This document shows positions 6,429-16,965 of a stretch of 21,138 bases of DNA, piece by piece (position 1 is the first letter of the stretch; every line of letters starts with the position of its first letter). The position numbers and the translations under genes are program-made. The notes under the pieces were generated by a model. It ran no database searches. It saw nothing but the letters and a program-made list of their open reading frames with translations, and was not told the DNA's origin. Location: UHGV virus genome UHGV-0785298; one strand, 5' to 3'. This DNA comes from a virus.

Positions 6429-9185
6429 TTATGCCCTGATAATGGAATTTGAAATAACGTCCAAGTAATCCGAAGAATTTTCAATCGGGTTCAGGGCGCT
6501 TGGTTTGTAATTCTCTTTCAAGAACCGGACAACACGATGACGTTCTACGGTCATGCGGTTCGCCTTTTTCGCGTTCCGTGTTGGCGTCTTCAGTAAATCA
6601 AACGGCACGAATCCATGAATCCTCAGAACTTCCGATGCGTGACTGAAGATTTGCAACATGCGTTGTTCAGCGCGGAACACCCTTTCATCCCGCTCATTGG
6701 TGTATAGATTCAGATTCAGAGTGCTGATCGTATCCTGGAAATGTTTGAAGCGGCGAACCTCATGGAGGGAAACACTACGCTTCGACATCGCCTGATAATG
6801 GCGGATAGTTTGTTCGTCCAAGATATCGTCAACATAATCCAGCATTTGGTTATACCGATTAACCAGCTGATTATAACGCCCGTCTTCCCCTTCACCGAAC
6901 GCCTGTTTTACCAGATGACACCCGTATTTCAGGCGATTAGAACCAAGGTGAAGTCTCTGATGAGATTTCAGCAACCGTATCGCGTTGTGGCGTTCCAGCA
7001 TCGGCTTGGCATTCTCCAACATAATCTTCAGGATTTCGTCGATCGGGATGAAGACCTCTGGGAACTTCTTCATCATCGGAACCGATTTGCGACGAGCCAA
7101 GAATATTCTGTCGTGAACGTTGAGCATATCTTTGATGTACACAGGCTTGCTATCTTCATCCGCGTGAACGGCATGTTTGTAGAGAGACTCGCGAATACCC
7201 CGCGCCGCAGCTGTGGTCAACGTTCTGTCCATCACCTGATGGATACACTCATAGCCAGACACCTCAATATAGACGATGCGCTCGCCCTTGTTTATGATAT
7301 CTGAGATCTGGTCGCCCGTCAGTTCTTCATACTGGTATATGTCGAAGTTGCTGCGCGTGAACGGAAACAGGCCAGGGTCTTTGGTGACCGGGGGCGTGAC
7401 ATACGCCAGTTCGTTCATGAACTTAACTTCAGCAGGCTCCAACACCGCACTCAGCCAATCGACGAACTTGTCAGCGAAGCACAGATAATCAACCGTCGTT
7501 TCTTCTTTACCAATCCAAGTTTCAAAGAAATCATAGAGAGCCTGAGAATTCTTGAACGCAGGGTTGTCCTTAGATTGGTTGCGCTTGGTGACATAGGATG
7601 TGTTCGGCTTGGCCACGATGACTATCGTCCCTGTATCTTTCAGCTGCTTGATCTTCAGGTTACGAGCACGAACACTATCTTCGATCACCACAGTAACATG
7701 CTGGCCGCGATCAATCCACTTCTGGATTTCTGAAATGGTCAGGGTACTGGACTCACCCCAGTCATAGAAGATCTCCATAGAGAACGGCGATGACAGCTCA
7801 TTGAACGGCGCGGTATGGTCATAATCGCGATCAATCTCAACAGGCAGCGGGTAACGGTAATATGAATCATGAAAGCGCTTGTCTGCCGGGTATTCCTTTT
7901 CAACCATCTTGCGGAACCCACTGCCGAACATTTCACTCAGTTTTGCCTTCTCCATATACAGGGCAAGAGGACCGCGCTTACACGCCAGCTCTAGGTCACG
8001 CATCTTTTCTGTCAAGATTGCATTGGCGGTGCCCTTAAACTCCTCAGAGAGCGTCTCACGCGTGAATTCGTCATATGAAAGGTCTTCACGCGACGGCGGT
8101 ACGTTCAGCGAGCCGAGTTCGAAGAACGTATAGGACGATGGAAACTTGCTCATGATAGAGGAAGTGTCTGGATCGAGCTGATTCAGGTCAATCGGGTACG
8201 ACACGCCACCCATTACAGCATAATGGGTGTTCCCCTGGCCTTTCGGCTGGATGTACGTGTTGTTGACCTTGAAATCATAACTGATATCTTCCCAGCTGAA
8301 GCGGTATGAAGCGTTCTCAACAATTGGGCGCTGTTCAGGGCGCATAACACGACCAAGACGGACCAGTTCATCGGAGAATGCAGAGAAACGAGCGTTCTTC
8401 ACCGGGATCTTCACCGTCATGCCGTTGAACTCATCGGTGTCTTCCGGCTTAGGATCACGGGTTTCAAGATCTTTGGTGATCAGATCAACAGTCGGGATAC
8501 GCTTGGCATTCAGGTACATCAGGAAGCGATGGAGTTTACCGTCCATGCGGCTTTCCACTGTGAACGAATCCGATACCGCAAATGGTGATTTGGAGCCAAG
8601 ACCGAATGCCCCAATCTGATCATCATCTTCTTCCTTCGTACTGTGGAAGAGAGTGGTATACAACCCAGGCGTACGAATGATTTCACCATCTTCGCGACGG
8701 AACACTAGACCACCATTATAGAACGCAGGCACGCCGATGACCTCAGCTGAGTCAGGGATCTCATCTTCCTTAACCACCATGTTGCCTTCCAGCAGCACCT
8801 CATCTTCCTGCGCTGGGATAGGCTCGCCAATGATCTTCTCAAGTGGCAGACCGATGCCGTAATCACGTATTTCCAGCCATGGTTCAAAGTCATCAGGTAG
8901 ATGCACAACAACCTGCTTACCCTTCGGTGCAAGGTATTTGCTATGGCGGGCAGGAGGCGGAGTGAGAGGCGCGTAGTGGGATGCCATCACACGGTGCATA
9001 CGATCACGCATGCCATGGGAGTCGATGGCGTTACAGACGGTTTCGCGCAGGGCTGCAGCCTCTTTGTAACGATACAATGATGAGAACAGAGTCTCAAACA
9101 TCTTATCGTTCATCTTCACGTTGAACGCCTGCCCCTGAATGGAAGACGACGAGCGGATAAAGTGCTCGGACTTGCGCATTTTCAT
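6429..9185 (-). CDS. rIIA: rIIA protein (GHKL/Bergerat-fold ATPase domain)
   Basis: 918-aa ORF immediately upstream of rIIB. N-terminal Bergerat ATPase motifs: ETVCNAIDS (ExxxNxxD), RDYGIGLP (DxGxG), GAFGLGSKS (G2 box). Size and rIIA-rIIB synteny are as in T4-type phages. Confidence 0.75.
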   Translation of the reverse strand: MKMRKSEHFIRSSSSIQGQAFNVKMNDKMFETLFSSLYRYKEAAALRETVCNAIDSHGMRDRMHRVMASHYAPLTPPPARHSKYLAPKGKQVVVHLPDDFEPWLEIRDYGIGLPLEKIIGEPIPAQEDEVLLEGNMVVKEDEIPDSAEVIGVPAFYNGGLVFRREDGEIIRTPGLYTTLFHSTKEEDDDQIGAFGLGSKSPFAVSDSFTVESRMDGKLHRFLMYLNAKRIPTVDLITKDLETRDPKPEDTDEFNGMTVKIPVKNARFSAFSDELVRLGRVMRPEQRPIVENASYRFSWEDISYDFKVNNTYIQPKGQGNTHYAVMGGVSYPIDLNQLDPDTSSIMSKFPSSYTFFELGSLNVPPSREDLSYDEFTRETLSEEFKGTANAILTEKMRDLELACKRGPLALYMEKAKLSEMFGSGFRKMVEKEYPADKRFHDSYYRYPLPVEIDRDYDHTAPFNELSSPFSMEIFYDWGESSTLTISEIQKWIDRGQHVTVVIEDSVRARNLKIKQLKDTGTIVIVAKPNTSYVTKRNQSKDNPAFKNSQALYDFFETWIGKEETTVDYLCFADKFVDWLSAVLEPAEVKFMNELAYVTPPVTKDPGLFPFTRSNFDIYQYEELTGDQISDIINKGERIVYIEVSGYECIHQVMDRTLTTAAARGIRESLYKHAVHADEDSKPVYIKDMLNVHDRIFLARRKSVPMMKKFPEVFIPIDEILKIMLENAKPMLERHNAIRLLKSHQRLHLGSNRLKYGCHLVKQAFGEGEDGRYNQLVNRYNQMLDYVDDILDEQTIRHYQAMSKRSVSLHEVRRFKHFQDTISTLNLNLYTNERDERVFRAEQRMLQIFSHASEVLRIHGFVPFDLLKTPTRNAKKANRMTVERHRVVRFLKENYKPSALNPIENSSDYLDVISNSIIRA

Positions 9186-10492: not shown

Positions 10493-10533
10493 ACGAAAAA
10501 GGGGATAGAGCAATAATACCCTATCCCCTTTTA
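10493..10533 (-). terminator. intrinsic-terminator-like hairpin (family A)
   Basis: 12-bp stem AAAAGGGGATAG / CTATCCCCTTTT with loop AGCAATAATACC; a T5 tract follows on the minus strand and a TTTTATTG tract on the plus strand. Confidence 0.6.
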
Positions 10534-10544
10534 TTGAAGAACGA

Positions 10545-10958
10545 TTAGACTTCAGATTCTACTTTCCCGCCTCGTAGATCCCGAACTGGTTTACCGTCCG
10601 GTGTCATCACATAAATGGTGTTGATTGTCTCAAACCAAGACAGCTGGTCAACACCCTCGGTGTATGGAGTCACCGGAACAGAAGTCTTGACCTCTTTGCC
10701 TTTCGTGTTCGGATGTTCAACCACATCCAAGAACGCACATTTCCCGCTCGGAAGGATCACACCATCAGTAAACAGCACGATCTTCTTGCGAGGGTTGCTG
10801 GCCTCACCCAGGCACACCACCAGATGATGGATCATCTCGGGGCGGTCAATCAACAAGTCGTCTTTGATAATCCCTTGCTTGATAGCAGAGATCACTACTT
10901 CATCCAACAGAGCCTGCTGTTGTTCCAGTGTCAGGGATTCAGTGAGTTTCACGCTCAT
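10545..10958 (-). CDS. hypothetical protein
   Basis: First ATG at 10958 (MSVKLTESL...), 4 nt after the LemA stop; 137 aa. The ORF-track start at 11027 would overlap LemA. Confidence 0.5.
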   Translation of the reverse strand: MSVKLTESLTLEQQQALLDEVVISAIKQGIIKDDLLIDRPEMIHHLVVCLGEASNPRKKIVLFTDGVILPSGKCAFLDVVEHPNTKGKEVKTSVPVTPYTEGVDQLSWFETINTIYVMTPDGKPVRDLRGGKVESEV

Positions 10959-10962
10959 GACA

Positions 10963-11532
10963 TCAGCCTTTGAAGTTAATCGGTTTCTGAATACCAGCGT
11001 CGAACGCGGCCTGGGTACGGGTATCACTCACCACCTGACAGGTCTTGTCAAGGTCGATACGCGGGTAGCCGAACATGCCAGCAATCAACGAACCAGGGAA
11101 CTGAGCCAGCTTGGTTTCGTATATTGTGCAGATATCCAGCTTCTTGGTCTGGCTGATGCGGAATTCATCACGCCCAGAACTGATCACCACCTGGATCTCT
11201 TTGTACAGGCTGGAATCGAACTGAATATTCTGCTCCTGGATCCACTGCATGACGGCCTTGGAACCATCAGCGCCATAACGCCCTTCGAACGTGCCTTTGA
11301 TCACTTCCTTCAGGCCGTCTTTATACATGTCAGGAATCTGCGCCGTCTCTTGAACTTTGAGCGTGTAGTTGCTCAGGTAGTTCTCGGAGTCTTTGTTGAA
11401 CTTCTTGACCTGCTGCTCAGTGCGGTTGAAGTCGTTGAAGTAGCTGATGACTGTACCGATGCCGAGAATCACTACACCCAGCAAAGCCAAACCAATTATC
11501 CAACCTGTTGCAATACCCTTAGATTGAGACAT
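10963..11532 (-). CDS. LemA-family membrane protein
   Basis: 189 aa with an N-terminal TM helix (WIIGLALLGVVILGIGTVI) and a C-terminal RDEFRISQ...IYETKLAQFPGSLIAGMFGY that matches the LemA signature (RxDYN...YNTAIxxFPxNxVAGMFGF). Strong Shine-Dalgarno AAGAGGAAG upstream. Confidence 0.65.
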   Translation of the reverse strand: MSQSKGIATGWIIGLALLGVVILGIGTVISYFNDFNRTEQQVKKFNKDSENYLSNYTLKVQETAQIPDMYKDGLKEVIKGTFEGRYGADGSKAVMQWIQEQNIQFDSSLYKEIQVVISSGRDEFRISQTKKLDICTIYETKLAQFPGSLIAGMFGYPRIDLDKTCQVVSDTRTQAAFDAGIQKPINFKG

Positions 11533-11550
11533 TCTTACTTCCTCTTTTGA

Positions 11551-12666
11551 TTAAAAATTAAACGGATAACGACGACGGCCACCATTGTACTCCATTCGCT
11601 GTAATATGAAAATTGCGGTGAACGGTAGACAGCCCAGTAGAACAACAATCACAACTTCCCAGGTCTTGAGTTCCCGCCACTTCAGGTACTCCATTTCCTT
11701 CATCTCAACGCGGTTGTAGCCTTTGGTGATGTTAGCGACAACATCAGCCATGACACCGACACCCATGTCGTGGCCTGTGAGAGCCATGCCATTGCGAGAA
11801 TGGAGTTCACGGTTATGCATACCATCAGCGAACGAAGTGCTCTTGCCCCAGTTGATCTTCAGGTCTTTGTTGATGTCGGTCACGACGATAACGTCGTTCT
11901 TTTTACCACCATCCCAAGCATAGACCAAGCCCTGGAAGTATTCAACTGGCTGACCGGAAGTCACAACCCAGACGATGTTCACCTGCTTGGCTGCGCCCAG
12001 CTTCTTCAGGACATCGTTCAGATAGTCGTTCCAGTATGTGGTCGGTAACGCCAGACCAGACACATTCAGTACACGAGTGACGCGATAGTAGTCATAGACC
12101 TCAGGGTACTTGGGAATCTTGTCTTTGAAGCGCTCAGCAAACTGCTGGTCCGAGCGAGAGAACAAAGAGTCCTTGTTACCCAGCACATAGTTCATGTAGG
12201 AATGCTCACGAGCTGCGGGTTCGCCGATCTGAACCTGCGCCCAGCGCGGGGGCTGACCAAGACCGCGACGATCAATGCGGTCAATCGTCAGATTACCGAC
12301 AGTCGTCAACACATCCCAGTCCACGTCATATGAATGCTCATAACATGTACTGCAATGGCGAGTGCGGGTACAGGACTTGCTGCTGCCGGAGCCGGAGCAT
12401 GATGTGGTGTAGTAGCAGTTGCATTCATATGAATGCTCACAGCTCACCTTATTCCGCTCCTTTGCAGTGACGTACCCGTTCAGGATCTCAACATCCCCTG
12501 AACTGCCAAGGGAGAACGCAGCATAAGTCCCCGCCTGAATCAGACAGGATAGCACCACTACAATCGCGGTCGCTATCAGAGTCTCTTTCGGCTCATGGGT
12601 CTTGCGGTGGTAGGCCACAAACAAAATAGCCAGTACCAATGGCACACCAAACAGGAGGTAGATCAT
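11551..12666 (-). CDS. membrane protein with Cys/His-rich segment and TPM-like domain (putative LemA partner)
   Basis: 371 aa: N-terminal TM helices, a Cys-rich block (CEHSYECNCYYTTSCSGSGSSKSCTRTRHCSTCYEHSY), then IVWVVTSGQPVEYFQGLVYAWDGGKKNDVIVVTDINKDLKINWG resembling the TPM-domain core (VVVT...W.IG.KGKDNGVLLLV...RKVRIEVGYG), and a C-terminal TM helix. The ATG overlaps the upstream stop (ATGA). Confidence 0.45.
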   Translation of the reverse strand: MIYLLFGVPLVLAILFVAYHRKTHEPKETLIATAIVVVLSCLIQAGTYAAFSLGSSGDVEILNGYVTAKERNKVSCEHSYECNCYYTTSCSGSGSSKSCTRTRHCSTCYEHSYDVDWDVLTTVGNLTIDRIDRRGLGQPPRWAQVQIGEPAAREHSYMNYVLGNKDSLFSRSDQQFAERFKDKIPKYPEVYDYYRVTRVLNVSGLALPTTYWNDYLNDVLKKLGAAKQVNIVWVVTSGQPVEYFQGLVYAWDGGKKNDVIVVTDINKDLKINWGKSTSFADGMHNRELHSRNGMALTGHDMGVGVMADVVANITKGYNRVEMKEMEYLKWRELKTWEVVIVVLLGCLPFTAIFILQRMEYNGGRRRYPFNF

Positions 12667-12881
12667 TTGGATTCACCGACGAGCTGCGCCTTGGTCATCC
12701 CAAGGAGTTGATCTTTATGCTCAGGATTGGCACCGTTCTTTAACAACAAATCCCAACGCTCTTCATGGTACTGTGGGTCCAGTGCTTCATCAAATGTGAT
12801 GTGGTGGCGGAACATAATAGTTGCCACTGAATGGACACAGTGAGCGATTGCGCGCTTCATTGTTCGGGTATTCTTGATCAT
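12663..12881 (-). CDS. hypothetical small protein
   Basis: ATG at 12881 overlaps the upstream stop (ATGA); 72 aa. The ORF-track start at 12902 is a TTG. Confidence 0.45.
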   Translation of the reverse strand: MIKNTRTMKRAIAHCVHSVATIMFRHHITFDEALDPQYHEERWDLLLKNGANPEHKDQLLGMTKAQLVGESK

Positions 12882-13102
12882 CTTGTACACCCTCCGACAC
12901 AAATGATATTCAGTTCGCCACGGACAAACCCATTCTTACCGGAGGATTTGTTGCCGTTCAGCATTTTCCACAGCCCATCAGCGTCGCCCAATTCCGGCAT
13001 CTGATACTGTACCACAGGGGTCTTGCGATCTTCTTCGAGCATTACAGACACCATAGATTCGATATCCAGGGAGTCCATATCTTCAATTCGTTGCATTGCC
13101 AT
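12878..13102 (-). CDS. hypothetical small acidic protein
   Basis: 74-aa ORF, ATG at 13102 with AGAGGA upstream. Confidence 0.5.
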   Translation of the reverse strand: MAMQRIEDMDSLDIESMVSVMLEEDRKTPVVQYQMPELGDADGLWKMLNGNKSSGKNGFVRGELNIICVGGCTR

Positions 13103-13114
13103 AGTGAAATCCTC

Positions 13115-13312
13115 TTAATAGAGTTTGGTGTATGTTTGTTTGACACACATAAAAGTGCTCATATATCTTTGTGATTCCACCAAATGAGCAAACGCCTTTT
13201 CTGCCGAACTCTTGTCCTTGAACTCCAGAACGGAAGTGTCTACTGCAATAGATTGATTCTTCCCGTCGAAGCCAACGGTTGTCACTAAGATCTTATAATC
13301 TTGGGTTTCCAT
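13115..13312 (-). CDS. hypothetical small protein
   Basis: 65-aa ORF, ATG at 13312 with AAGGA upstream. Confidence 0.5.
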   Translation of the reverse strand: METQDYKILVTTVGFDGKNQSIAVDTSVLEFKDKSSAEKAFAHLVESQRYMSTFMCVKQTYTKLY

Positions 13313-13325
13313 GATGTATATCCTT

Positions 13326-13368
13326 GCAAAAGAAAGGGGAACGGGCTAATAATAACCCATTCCCCTTT
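13326..13368 (-). terminator. intrinsic-terminator-like hairpin (family A)
   Basis: 9-bp stem AAAGGGGAA / TTCCCCTTT enclosing loop CGGGCTAATAATAACCCA; on the minus strand it is followed by TTTCTTTTG, then an AAGGA Shine-Dalgarno and the ATG at 13312. Confidence 0.55.
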
Positions 13369-13393: not shown

Positions 13394-13561
13394 TTACTTT
13401 TTCTTCAGCTCGTCCAGTTTGGCTTCGATCTGGTCCAGAATCTCTTTGCCTTTCTGAACAATCACTTCACCATCTTGCGCGTGTTTACGGAAGACCAGAG
13501 CACCAGCGATGAAGCCGACAACCGCGCCAGGAAGCGCATAAACCAGCAGATCTTGTAACAT
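13394..13561 (-). CDS. small single-pass membrane protein (not in the ORF track)
   Basis: Hand translation from ATG 13561..13559 to TAA at 13396..13394: MLQDLLVYALPGAVVGFIAGALVFRKHAQDGEVIVQKGKEILDQIEAKLDELKKK (55 aa), one TM helix and a charged helical tail. A GAGGA Shine-Dalgarno lies 9 nt upstream, inside a hairpin arm. Confidence 0.5.
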   Translation of the reverse strand: MLQDLLVYALPGAVVGFIAGALVFRKHAQDGEVIVQKGKEILDQIEAKLDELKKK

Positions 13562-13597
13562 GATAATATCCTCGCTTTATAGGCGAGGATATTTATA
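13562..13597 (-). promoter_or_regulatory. TATAAATA (T4 late-promoter-like octamer) followed by an 8-bp hairpin that contains the downstream gene's Shine-Dalgarno
   Basis: The minus strand reads TATAAATA at 13597..13590, immediately followed by stem ATCCTCGC / GCGAGGAT (13567..13589) whose 3' arm contains the GAGGA used by the small ORF starting at 13561. This is the only TATAAATA in the window. Confidence 0.3.
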
Positions 13598-15369: not shown

Positions 15370-16965
15370 TCACCCCTTCTTCATCAGGTCAAGGAGAGAG
15401 CGCGACGCTGCCTTCGTTGCTTCTGGCTGGGCGCTCGCCTTGGTTTTAGTTTTGGATGCCTTCTGTGGCTTCTCAGGGACTCTGTGTGCCAAAGGGTTGC
15501 TACCTCTTATCTTGCGCAGCATGGGATACTGCTCGCAATATTTATGGAATTCATCTTTTGAAAGATTAAGCCCAACAAAGTCAATAACAAAGTCACCGAT
15601 AACCGCCAACGGGGCGTCAAAATATTTCAGGATGTTCCAGCCGACGGCCTTCACACCGTTTCCATTAGCAGCCTTGGCAATGAAGAGTTCATGATTGGAA
15701 TCCGGTTCCAGCTCATACCCAATAGCAGAATATTCGCCCATGATCTTGACATGATCCTTGGTGTATTGATCGTTTCGTCCCCAGCCAGTGTCCTTCGCCG
15801 CCTTACCAGAACGACCGATGATACGCTTGTCGTAATCTTCCCGTGCCTGATAGATGAATGAGATGAATGCCATGTTGTTGAACCCCAAGTCCTGGTGTAC
15901 GAACTTAGGACGCCACCGATGGCTCTGCATCATAGGTTCCCCTTCCAATATGATGGTAGAATCCTTGTATTTCCCTTTGATGTATTTCACCAATGAATTG
16001 GCCATCTCAGAAGTCTTGAGAGTGGAGTGGATGAAGTCCATGGAAGTCCAAGAAGCCAGATCTGATTTGTTGGACACTGTATACTTGCCGATGAACACCA
16101 GATTGATTTCCTTGAACCAAAACCCAACCTGGATCATCTTCTTGTCGAATTCGTATTCTATGAGTTCTGGCTCATATTTGGTTCTCAACCACTCAAGGAA
16201 TTGAACGACACGAGTCCCCTTTCCCGTTCCACTTGTCCCGCGAATAACGACAATACCCGGCGTCACGCTAGAATTTATCATAGTCATAAAACGTTTGTCC
16301 TCTTTGGGAATCCAACCATCTTTAAACATGGCGATCATATTACGAAAGACGCTCTCATCGCCCTTTAGATTACGATACTCTGTGTCCAGTAGTTTAGAAT
16401 ACCACAATCCGATAGATTTGTAACCACATCCTCGTTTTGGCATACAGGTAGGATTCACAGTACCGCCGTTGTTCACCCATCTATCATAGATCCTACGGGC
16501 GTCCTTCCAAACCCACCAATAACCATTTGAAACCATGAATGGGTAGGGAGAATTACCCCTGTTCTCCTTTATTGATTTTATTACACGTTCCCGGTATTCT
16601 GGATCATCCCAAGGATTTATACCAGATTTGTATTTCTTGCCAGTCCTAGCCAACGCCGCCTTAAATTGGTTTGGTATGATAGAATTGTCTCCTCCCAATT
16701 TCAGGTTCAGGCATAATGGGTCCAACAGTAACTCTTCCGTAACAATAATAGACTCCAGGTCGGATGCCTCCAACCTGGTTTCAAACTTTTCTATTATCGT
16801 CTTTAAGAATTCAGAAGCGGGGTGAGATTCCAACAACCTTTTGATGATAACACCAGAACCCATATAGGGGTCTTGTTCGGGGGTGCATGAACAAGACCGA
16901 ATCCCGACGTAGAATCTCCCAGTTGGGACATGAGTTATCCTATATGTGTAATGGTAGCGAGCCAT
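15370..16965 (-). CDS. GIY-YIG nuclease domain fused to a P-loop NTPase/kinase-like domain
   Basis: 531 aa. N-terminus YHYTYRITHVPTGRFYVGIRS...DPYMGSG fits the GIY-(10-11 aa)-YIG spacing and the 'YMGSG' signature of Seg-like phage GIY-YIG nucleases. Mid-protein Walker A IVVIRGTSGTGKGTRVV and a Walker-B-like DSTIILEGEP. Lys-rich C-terminal tail. The ATG overlaps the upstream stop (TAATG). Confidence 0.55.
   Translation of the reverse strand: MARYHYTYRITHVPTGRFYVGIRSCSCTPEQDPYMGSGVIIKRLLESHPASEFLKTIIEKFETRLEASDLESIIVTEELLLDPLCLNLKLGGDNSIIPNQFKAALARTGKKYKSGINPWDDPEYRERVIKSIKENRGNSPYPFMVSNGYWWVWKDARRIYDRWVNNGGTVNPTCMPKRGCGYKSIGLWYSKLLDTEYRNLKGDESVFRNMIAMFKDGWIPKEDKRFMTMINSSVTPGIVVIRGTSGTGKGTRVVQFLEWLRTKYEPELIEYEFDKKMIQVGFWFKEINLVFIGKYTVSNKSDLASWTSMDFIHSTLKTSEMANSLVKYIKGKYKDSTIILEGEPMMQSHRWRPKFVHQDLGFNNMAFISFIYQAREDYDKRIIGRSGKAAKDTGWGRNDQYTKDHVKIMGEYSAIGYELEPDSNHELFIAKAANGNGVKAVGWNILKYFDAPLAVIGDFVIDFVGLNLSKDEFHKYCEQYPMLRKIRGSNPLAHRVPEKPQKASKTKTKASAQPEATKAASRSLLDLMKKG

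Follow-up and report, generated by a model that had tools for sequence, protein, structure and literature searches.

We identified, in a large virulent phage, two adjacent genes, here called A and B, that are very probably a phage version of the bacterial LemA/TPM module, with both proteins anchored in the inner membrane and facing the periplasm. The pair lies on a 21,138-nt stretch of the UHGV virus genome UHGV-0785298 (from here: the window), whose source is a ViI-like phage of the family Ackermannviridae; it is of the Agtrevirus type and shares 98% identity with Escherichia phage AV101. The two genes, the spacer between them and the predicted parts of protein A are located as follows.

11551-12666, minus strand: gene A, encoding a predicted inner-membrane protein of 371 amino acids (aa) with a transmembrane (TM) hairpin, a Cys/His β domain, a TPM-fold domain and a C-terminal TM anchor.
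12505-12663, minus strand: A residues 2-54, a pair of TM helices at the N-terminus and the basic loop HRKTHEPKE that connects them, as judged from hydropathy, charge bias and the helices 2-20 and 26-54 of an AlphaFold 2 (AF2) model.
12193-12498, minus strand: A residues 57-158, a β-rich domain of long hairpins with the Cys pairs C84-C105 and C90-C99 and the CxH...CxxH set C76, H78, C108 and H111.
11677-12072, minus strand: A residues ~199-330, an α/β domain of predicted TPM fold with the motifs KQVNIV.V and W.GGKKNDV.
11584-11664, minus strand: A residues 335-361, a C-terminal TM anchor followed by the short basic tail GGRRRYPFNF, placed by AF2 and charge bias.
11533-11550, minus strand: the spacer between A and B, 18 nt, with the sequence TCAAAAGAGGAAGTAAGA.
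11538-11546, minus strand: the Shine-Dalgarno sequence AAGAGGAAG of B, inside the 18-nt spacer.
10963-11532, minus strand: gene B, encoding a LemA-like protein of 189 aa that has a TM anchor near its N-terminus (~residues 10-31) and, after it, a helical domain with FPGSLIAGMFGY at its end.

Both are real genes and not chance open reading frames (ORFs): each has hundreds of homologs, and matches to the PHROG families phrog_2087 for A (E = 4e-163) and phrog_1383 for B (E = 7e-86) were found. A first-pass annotation made from the letters of the window had given the pair these coordinates, with an 18-nt gap and a strong Shine-Dalgarno sequence, and all of this was confirmed by the minus-strand ORFs and by AAGAGGAAG in the spacer. 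The features it had read from the proteins, namely the N-terminal hydrophobic helix and the FPGSLIAGMFGY motif of B as well as the Cys/His block of A, are likewise present; the block covers residues 76-111, and A has an α/β domain in its C-terminal part.

With profiles, the assignment of B to the LemA superfamily is clear, and profiles are needed because the single sequence fails the Pfam cut-off. Searched alone, B matched the Pfam LemA family (PF04011) with 13.7 bits (E = 0.056) over residues 125-158 only, not reaching the gathering threshold of 26.2. Among the 39 members of the B family, nine yielded Pfam LemA matches (best E = 1.6e-3), and LemA was the Pfam family matched by most members. 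When the profile of these 39 members was compared with the PDB, the LemA structure 2ETD was the top match (E = 5e-4; query 32-161 against chain 10-156). With hhalign, the B family could be aligned to 24 canonical LemA proteins over 135 columns (96.6% probability, E = 6e-10). The aligned part takes in the FP…MFGF motif at the C-terminus, where the FPGSLIAGMFGY sequence of B stands opposite FPgviFAkMFGF of canonical LemA. The first-pass annotation had called B a clear LemA, a wording that holds for the profile comparisons and was too strong for the single sequence. The architecture agrees as well: B has one N-terminal TM helix, an all-helical domain (AF2 model with a predicted local distance difference test score, pLDDT, of 82) and a C-terminal FP..hhA.hFGF motif, and its 189 aa compare with 186-195 aa in canonical LemA proteins, which share the N-terminal anchor. 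A PADLOC match of the TM/coiled-coil region of B to LeoBC (E = 2e-4) was weak and was dismissed as noise.

For A, the link to TPM proteins lies at the level of the fold. The AF2 model is confident (pLDDT 89.1), its C-terminal region forms an α/β domain of the TPM type, and Foldseek matched it to LMTP1 (9H70) with a probability of 0.99 and to 2KPT with 0.97. This bears out the resemblance to a TPM domain that had been noticed in the C-terminal region of A, while the sequence-level link is weak: the protein of the window had no match to Pfam TPM (PF04536, TLP18.3/Psb32/MOLO-1), and TPM_phosphatase, the Pfam family matched by most members of the A family, was found in only nine of 40 (best E = 1.8e-4). 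The predicted tether is that of a TPM protein, with a C-terminal TM helix after the domain, a domain placed outside by charge bias and covarying Cys pairs in the ectodomain. A strongly conserved linker in A carries the motifs IDRIDRQG, PPRW and YDYY.

From Cys covariation, from lipobox variants and from charge bias, the soluble domains of A and B are both predicted to be periplasmic, with both proteins anchored in the host inner membrane. In the AF2 model of A, the register of the hairpin places C84 opposite C105 and C90 opposite C99, and exactly these residues covary, as the predicted pairing requires: C84 and C105 are both present in 78 sequences, both missing in 21 and single in one, and the corresponding numbers for C90 and C99 are 82, 14 and four. 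Disulfides would staple the β domain. Cys135 and Cys165 of B occur together in 44 sequences and are both missing in 42, with no sequence carrying a single one, and at least four changes of state were counted on a neighbour-joining tree. A positive-inside charge bias was seen alike in the loop and tail of A, in B and in canonical LemA. The anchor of B is predicted to be N-in, and in some lineages it is a lipoprotein signal: in seven of 125 homologs the hydrophobic segment at the N-terminus is no plain anchor but ends in a lipobox. This placement agrees with the predicted extracytoplasmic C-terminal domain of LemA (PMC3905215), and bacterial TPM partners carry signal peptides. The envelope-directed role proposed in the first-pass annotation fits the predicted topology. 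The CxH…CxxH set of A (C76, H78, C108, H111) suggests a metal site, because it is degraded jointly in the same two lineages, one of which retains C76 and the other C108.

The premise that bacterial LemA genes stand beside TPM genes was borne out in Thermotoga, whose LemA is the protein of 2ETD, and in Neobacillus mesonae, in both of which a PF04536 gene comes next with overlapping stop and start codons. The bacterial operons and the phage pair alike consist of two adjacent, co-oriented and tightly packed genes, for a LemA protein of ~190 aa with an N-terminal anchor and for a membrane-anchored TPM protein with a C-terminal TM helix. The homology is at profile level for LemA and at fold level for TPM, and the bacterial TPM partners (signal peptide, TPM domain, C-terminal TM helix) resemble the C-terminal half of A. 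In contrast, the gene order is reversed, with LemA before TPM in the bacteria and the TPM-like before the LemA-like gene in the phages. Moreover, in phage A the TM hairpin, a Cys/His β domain of ~140 residues and the conserved linker replace the signal peptide, and the Gly-rich tail of the bacterial TPM partners is lacking. Finally, the phage module is carried by virulent phages, and both its proteins fall below the Pfam thresholds.

The two genes are tightly linked. In 80 viral loci retrieved from IMG/VR with the A profile, which cover ~46 A-lineages at 55% identity, A is directly followed by a B homolog in the same orientation in 78; in the two others the fetched DNA stops ~150 bp past A. 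No flanking family is common to more than three of the ~46 lineages, and no conserved third partner gene was found. One metagenomic contig (L111:1012-2673) encodes an in-frame A–B fusion of 553 aa with no stop under the standard code, in which the cytoplasmic tail of A is followed by the TM helix of B, an order that agrees with the predicted topologies. A and B most likely form a complex. In the fusion contig an SD-like AAGGGAG (SD, Shine-Dalgarno) persists before the internal B start, and a CTP_transf_like cytidylyltransferase gene and, farther on, a Gad2-family gene are found downstream.

The pair is widely distributed. By tblastn against 50,697 phage records, B was found in 498 and A in 486 (~1%), and the A family comprises ~2,100 clusters at 50% identity, 1,702 of these at E ≤ 1e-10. 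Carriers include Ackermannviridae, ICP1, T5-like, T4-like and Rak2-like jumbo phages, and B-like genes also occur in Prevotella Lak megaphages. Across unrelated phage families, with hosts from Vibrio to candidate-phyla bacteria, 35-45% identity with invariant motifs is kept. Within Ackermannviridae the pair is effectively universal: rIIA and the pair were counted in 164 versus 168/166 Salmonella phage records and in 19 versus 19/19 Dickeya phage records. A and B are under unusually strong constraint by purifying selection, because they stay at 80-90% amino-acid identity (~160 records each) while rIIA drops below 60% (311 of 357 records) across the genera of the family. The pair had been placed inside a phage accessory island, a view that these numbers contradict, with a flat GC (guanine plus cytosine) content of ~0.50 across the window and a pair that is near-universal in the family and better conserved than rIIA.

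The term accessory is correct in ICP1, where the cassette is mobile. Only eight of 82 isolates (MW794142-MW794149, one of them a 2017 isolate from the Democratic Republic of the Congo) carry the pair, the other 74 being without it. Comparison of a locus with the insertion (L105:2300-6412) and one without (L112:6680-7653) revealed an insertion of ~3.4 kb with six genes (A, B and four small ORFs) between genes that adjoin in the 1992 isolate. For selz, a phage of the Ackermannviridae, a study on genome reduction by CiPGr (PMC9825161) reported spontaneous deletions of genes 189-195 of 201, which might include the pair.

Several further occurrences were noted. Bacterial-binned contigs with the pair often carry phage-like genes nearby, as judged by eye from N-terminal sequences, and the copies on large bacterial contigs may be prophage-borne. 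A without detectable B was seen in three apparently chromosomal bacterial loci, between priA-like and trmB-like genes in a metagenome-assembled genome deposited as Rickettsia typhi (L094) and on high-GC contigs binned to Myxococcota (Kofleriaceae) and Deltaproteobacteria (L095 and L099). In the candidate-phyla bacteria Peribacteria and SR1 (L102:5236-7402 and L103:2199-4268), longer A proteins (493 and 464 aa), in which the Cys-rich region is patterned differently, are followed by B-like proteins, of which the one in L102 has the canonical lipobox FSLTAC. The record OR844942.1, 'Enterococcus phage Efm 3-10' (111 kb), contains an A–B pair with 90.8% nucleotide identity to Salmonella phage Vi01, which suggests contamination or mislabelling with a Kuttervirus.

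In the window, A and B belong to an operon of six co-transcribed genes, three small ORFs, A, B and an ORF of 137 aa, whose start and stop codons overlap or lie close together. The remaining features of the operon and its boundaries, in the direction of transcription, are these.

13394-13561, minus strand: gene of a 55-aa TM/coiled-coil protein, with TATAAATA just upstream (region 13562-13597), followed by the upstream terminator of the operon.
13327-13368, minus strand: terminator-like hairpin at the 5' boundary of the operon, with a 16-bp stem and a UAUU loop, then CUUUCUUUUG.
13115-13312, minus strand: first small operon ORF, 65 aa, phrog_7747, no assigned function.
12878-13102, minus strand: second small operon ORF, 74 aa, phrog_5099, no assigned function, with an ATGA stop/start overlap with the third.
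12663-12881, minus strand: third small operon ORF, 72 aa from ATG, phrog_16350, no assigned function, its stop overlapping the ATG of A (ATGA).
10545-10958, minus strand: last operon gene, 137 aa, phrog_4236, no assigned function, starting 4 nt past the stop of B.
10493-10532, minus strand: downstream terminator hairpin with a 16-bp stem, a UUAU loop and a U-run.

Both hairpins were established by RNA folding, a consensus terminator scan having missed them. The upstream one has a folding energy of -27.8 kcal/mol (z = -5.3; none of 200 shuffles was equally stable) and the downstream one of -27.6 kcal/mol (z = -6.8). They are near-copies of each other (CAATAAAGGGGA..GGGTTATTATT..CCCCTTT), and terminators were annotated in phage LIMEstone1 at positions matching both. 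The sequence TATTAT is located in the hairpin loop region, where the LIMEstone1 annotators noted a possible -10 element within the downstream terminator. The 137-aa protein after B is without TM helix or signal sequence.

All genes of the window are on the minus strand. Their order is DNA polymerase, a deoxyribonucleotidase-like gene, a homing endonuclease/nucleotide kinase gene, aGPT-pyrophosphorylase (thymidine hypermodification) and the 55-aa TM protein, then the A/B operon, four small ORFs, rIIA, rIIB and Hoc-like, histone-like and MazG genes. The pair is thus placed between DNA-polymerase/thymidine-hypermodification genes and rIIA/rIIB, which follow ~1.8 kb downstream (rIIA, 6429-9185) and whose T4 homologs are membrane-associated. 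The small ORFs flanking A and B differ among the genera of Ackermannviridae. A motif scan found TATAAATA, the T4-type late-promoter motif, once in the window, ahead of the upstream 55-aa TM gene, and not ahead of the A/B operon; A and B are probably expressed at a non-late stage. Between TATAAATA and the start codon of the 55-aa gene there is a further hairpin with an 11-bp stem (-15.9 kcal/mol, z = -5.2). The ORF at 15370-16965 (minus strand, 531 aa) combines a homing-endonuclease-like part (1-227) with a P-loop guanylate-like nucleotide kinase of the thymidine-hypermodification pathway (238-530); its counterparts in phage RPN242 are two genes, for a SegD-like endonuclease and a 'P-loop nucleotide kinase 2', and the 531-aa ORF could be a true fusion or overlapping genes.

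The existing annotation of the pair is uneven. In the records inspected, A is a hypothetical, uncharacterised or putative membrane protein, apart from the ortholog in Vi01 (A–B locus Vi01_203/Vi01_204 of NC_015296.1, L106:13233-14927), whose gene field reads 'host lysis protein' without stated evidence. Orthologs of B are variously named 'virion structural protein', 'LemA', 'Lipoprotein' and, in a few records, 'major capsid protein'. In the library that could be searched, no description of a phage LemA–TPM cassette came up. The structural label of B, which goes with phrog_1383 and is repeated in many RefSeq records, would make the two proteins part of the virion, a reading that we regard as largely refuted and very improbable. 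For Vi01 it stands in the RefSeq copy, whereas the authors' GenBank record has 'uncharacterised protein' for all three genes under the match, and the virion mass-spectrometry table of LIMEstone1, with 39 proteins, does not list the ortholog ORF195; in neither the LIMEstone1 virion table nor the Vi01 records could proteomic support for the label be traced. In addition, the partner of B, itself a LemA homolog with a TM anchor, is always a protein with three TM helices; the structural module lies at a great distance from the operon, which has no late promoter motif; and 74 of 82 ICP1 isolates do without the pair. It is almost certain that B is misnamed as 'virion structural protein' or 'major capsid protein'. 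The first-pass annotation had given as a ground against its own reading that the pair might be universal core genes of this phage group with a known structural role. Of this, the universality was found within Ackermannviridae; the structural role was not, the Vi01 label being in the RefSeq copy alone and the protein missing from the LIMEstone1 virion mass-spectrometry data.

With regard to function, we tentatively favour a chaperone-like scaffold or envelope-homeostasis module, because of the known TPM helpers, MamQ, the responses to membrane and metal stress and the deep conservation across hosts. TPM domains were proposed to be chaperone-like assembly factors of membrane complexes and partners of PspA (PMC11237479; Lipocone preprint), examples being TLP18.3/Psb32/LMTP1 in photosystem II repair, DUF5130 as a subunit of the CIII2CIV2 supercomplex of mycobacteria, and YdjH, whose gene belongs to the envelope-stress operon of PspA in B. 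subtilis. Like A, these assembly and repair factors are extracytoplasmic and membrane-tethered; unlike A, which has an extra N-terminal module, they are known to act with cellular complexes. MamQ, a magnetosome membrane protein and, according to a 2016 study (PMC4902198), the only LemA member tied to a cellular process, the formation of the magnetosome membrane, shares with B the predicted LemA-family fold, the N-terminal anchor and a domain predicted to face the lumen or periplasm. It differs in its 273 aa with a stretch specific to magnetotactic bacteria and in working with MamB, MamM and MamL, and the sources mention no TPM partner. Furthermore, the genes induced in a membrane-stress mutant include lemA and a TPM gene (PMC13236525). 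The better conservation than that of rIIA within Ackermannviridae, the position ~1.8 kb from rIIA/rIIB and the lack of a T4-type late promoter ahead of the operon also count in favour of this role. By analogy with cellular TPM proteins, the pair would act on the outer face of an energy-transducing membrane, where its effect would be to stabilise or reorganise an inner-membrane complex or a lipid domain that is conserved among hosts. Large virulent phages, whose infection cycle is long, might in this way keep the membrane intact and energised throughout. The target would be a universal host structure and not a phage-specific one, because conservation is deep across very different hosts. In a more specific form, which we consider unlikely, a cellular envelope-stress system would have its portable, phage-encoded counterpart in the periplasmic pair, which would maintain a sealed and energised inner membrane, together with rIIA/rIIB in Ackermannviridae; the threats might come from abortive-infection effectors that target membranes, from the holin load of the phage itself or from other phages.

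Several observations weigh against the LemA/TPM assignment or the homeostasis role. Pfam and NCBIfam searches with the single A and B sequences gave nothing above threshold; Foldseek with the all-helical B model returned 2ETD from the PDB only at rank 5 with a non-significant E of 0.7; the A-family profile found no TPM structure among the PDB sequences; and hhalign of A with single bacterial TPM partners was weak (24.7% and 1%). The A–B fusion is a single case on a single metagenomic contig. The pair is not needed for lytic growth in ICP1, because most isolates lack it. The mechanism is argued by analogy because even the function of bacterial LemA/TPM is not established, and it is not obvious why a homeostasis role should call for the extra Cys/His domain of A.

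The main rival to envelope homeostasis, somewhat unlikely in our view, is superinfection exclusion or protection against lysis from without, in which A and B would act at the inner membrane and block genome entry or cell-wall attack by secondary phages, as Imm and Sp do in T4. Membrane-anchored proteins with predicted periplasmic domains would suit such a task, the genes are located among small early-type ORFs near rIIA/rIIB and not in a late or structural block, and the mobile, dispensable ICP1 cassette (8/82 isolates, 3.4-kb insertion) has a pattern typical of genes for phage-phage competition. T4 Imm/Sp and RI/RIII, which serve exclusion and lysis inhibition, are, like A and B, small phage envelope proteins at the periplasmic face, their non-late expression being known in T4 and inferred for A and B. 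However, exclusion proteins are usually lineage-specific and fast-evolving, and the T4 proteins are narrowly distributed and have no sequence or fold relationship that we could find, whereas A and B span many phage families, keep invariant motifs at 35-45% identity and are more conserved than rIIA in Ackermannviridae. An origin in a cellular LemA/TPM module of bacteria that have no such need, and the presence of A alone in apparently chromosomal loci (L094, L095, L099), also speak against exclusion.

Control of lysis timing, by an antiholin-like pair, a lysis-inhibition sensor or B as an i-spanin-like protein, is improbable. The gene field of the Vi01 A ortholog and the nearby rIIA/rIIB, classed under lysis by PHROGs, point to it, and B is superficially i-spanin-like in its N-terminal TM helix, helical periplasmic domain and periplasmic cysteines. 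However, the Vi01 name comes without stated evidence; the operon lacks an endolysin, a holin and an outer-membrane lipoprotein spanin, and the gene after B is without signal peptide; none of the ~46 lineages has a conserved lysis-gene neighbour; no late promoter motif precedes the operon; and neither spanins nor antiholins show such conservation from one phage family to the next, while B is demonstrably LemA-like. It is equally doubtful that A is a periplasmic enzyme or metal-dependent sensor, that is, a TPM phosphatase or nucleotidase or a protein with a metal-binding Cys/His site, with the LemA protein as accessory subunit. Phosphatase or ATPase activity of TPM domains has been reported (cited in PMC11237479), the ydjFGHL operon encodes zinc-ribbon proteins together with TPM (PMC11237479), LemA of E. 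faecalis is upregulated under Cu stress and under treatment with the zinc chelator gliotoxin, and the conserved CxH...CxxH set of A is degraded in the same two lineages. Against this, recent comparative analyses hold TPM domains unlikely to be phosphatases (Lipocone preprint), no catalytic motif was identified in A, and the metal site is inferred from the sequence pattern only.

LemA proteins (PF04011) with TPM partners are widespread in bacteria, yet their mechanism is not established, and the phage pair provides a tractable handle on it, with genetics in Ackermannviridae of Salmonella and E. coli and a natural presence/absence polymorphism in ICP1. The 'LemA' name of B was known from some records; new are the reversed order, the added Cys/His ectodomain and TM hairpin, the sequences beyond the reach of Pfam and the phage-wide distribution. 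The results correct a widespread misannotation of B and allow A to be annotated as a TPM-domain membrane protein. Among the cassettes of large virulent phages that serve neither structure nor replication, this divergent, architecturally extended pair ranks with the more widely shared ones. If its role in envelope stress, as set out above, were true, it would reveal the function of LemA/TPM modules in bacteria generally.

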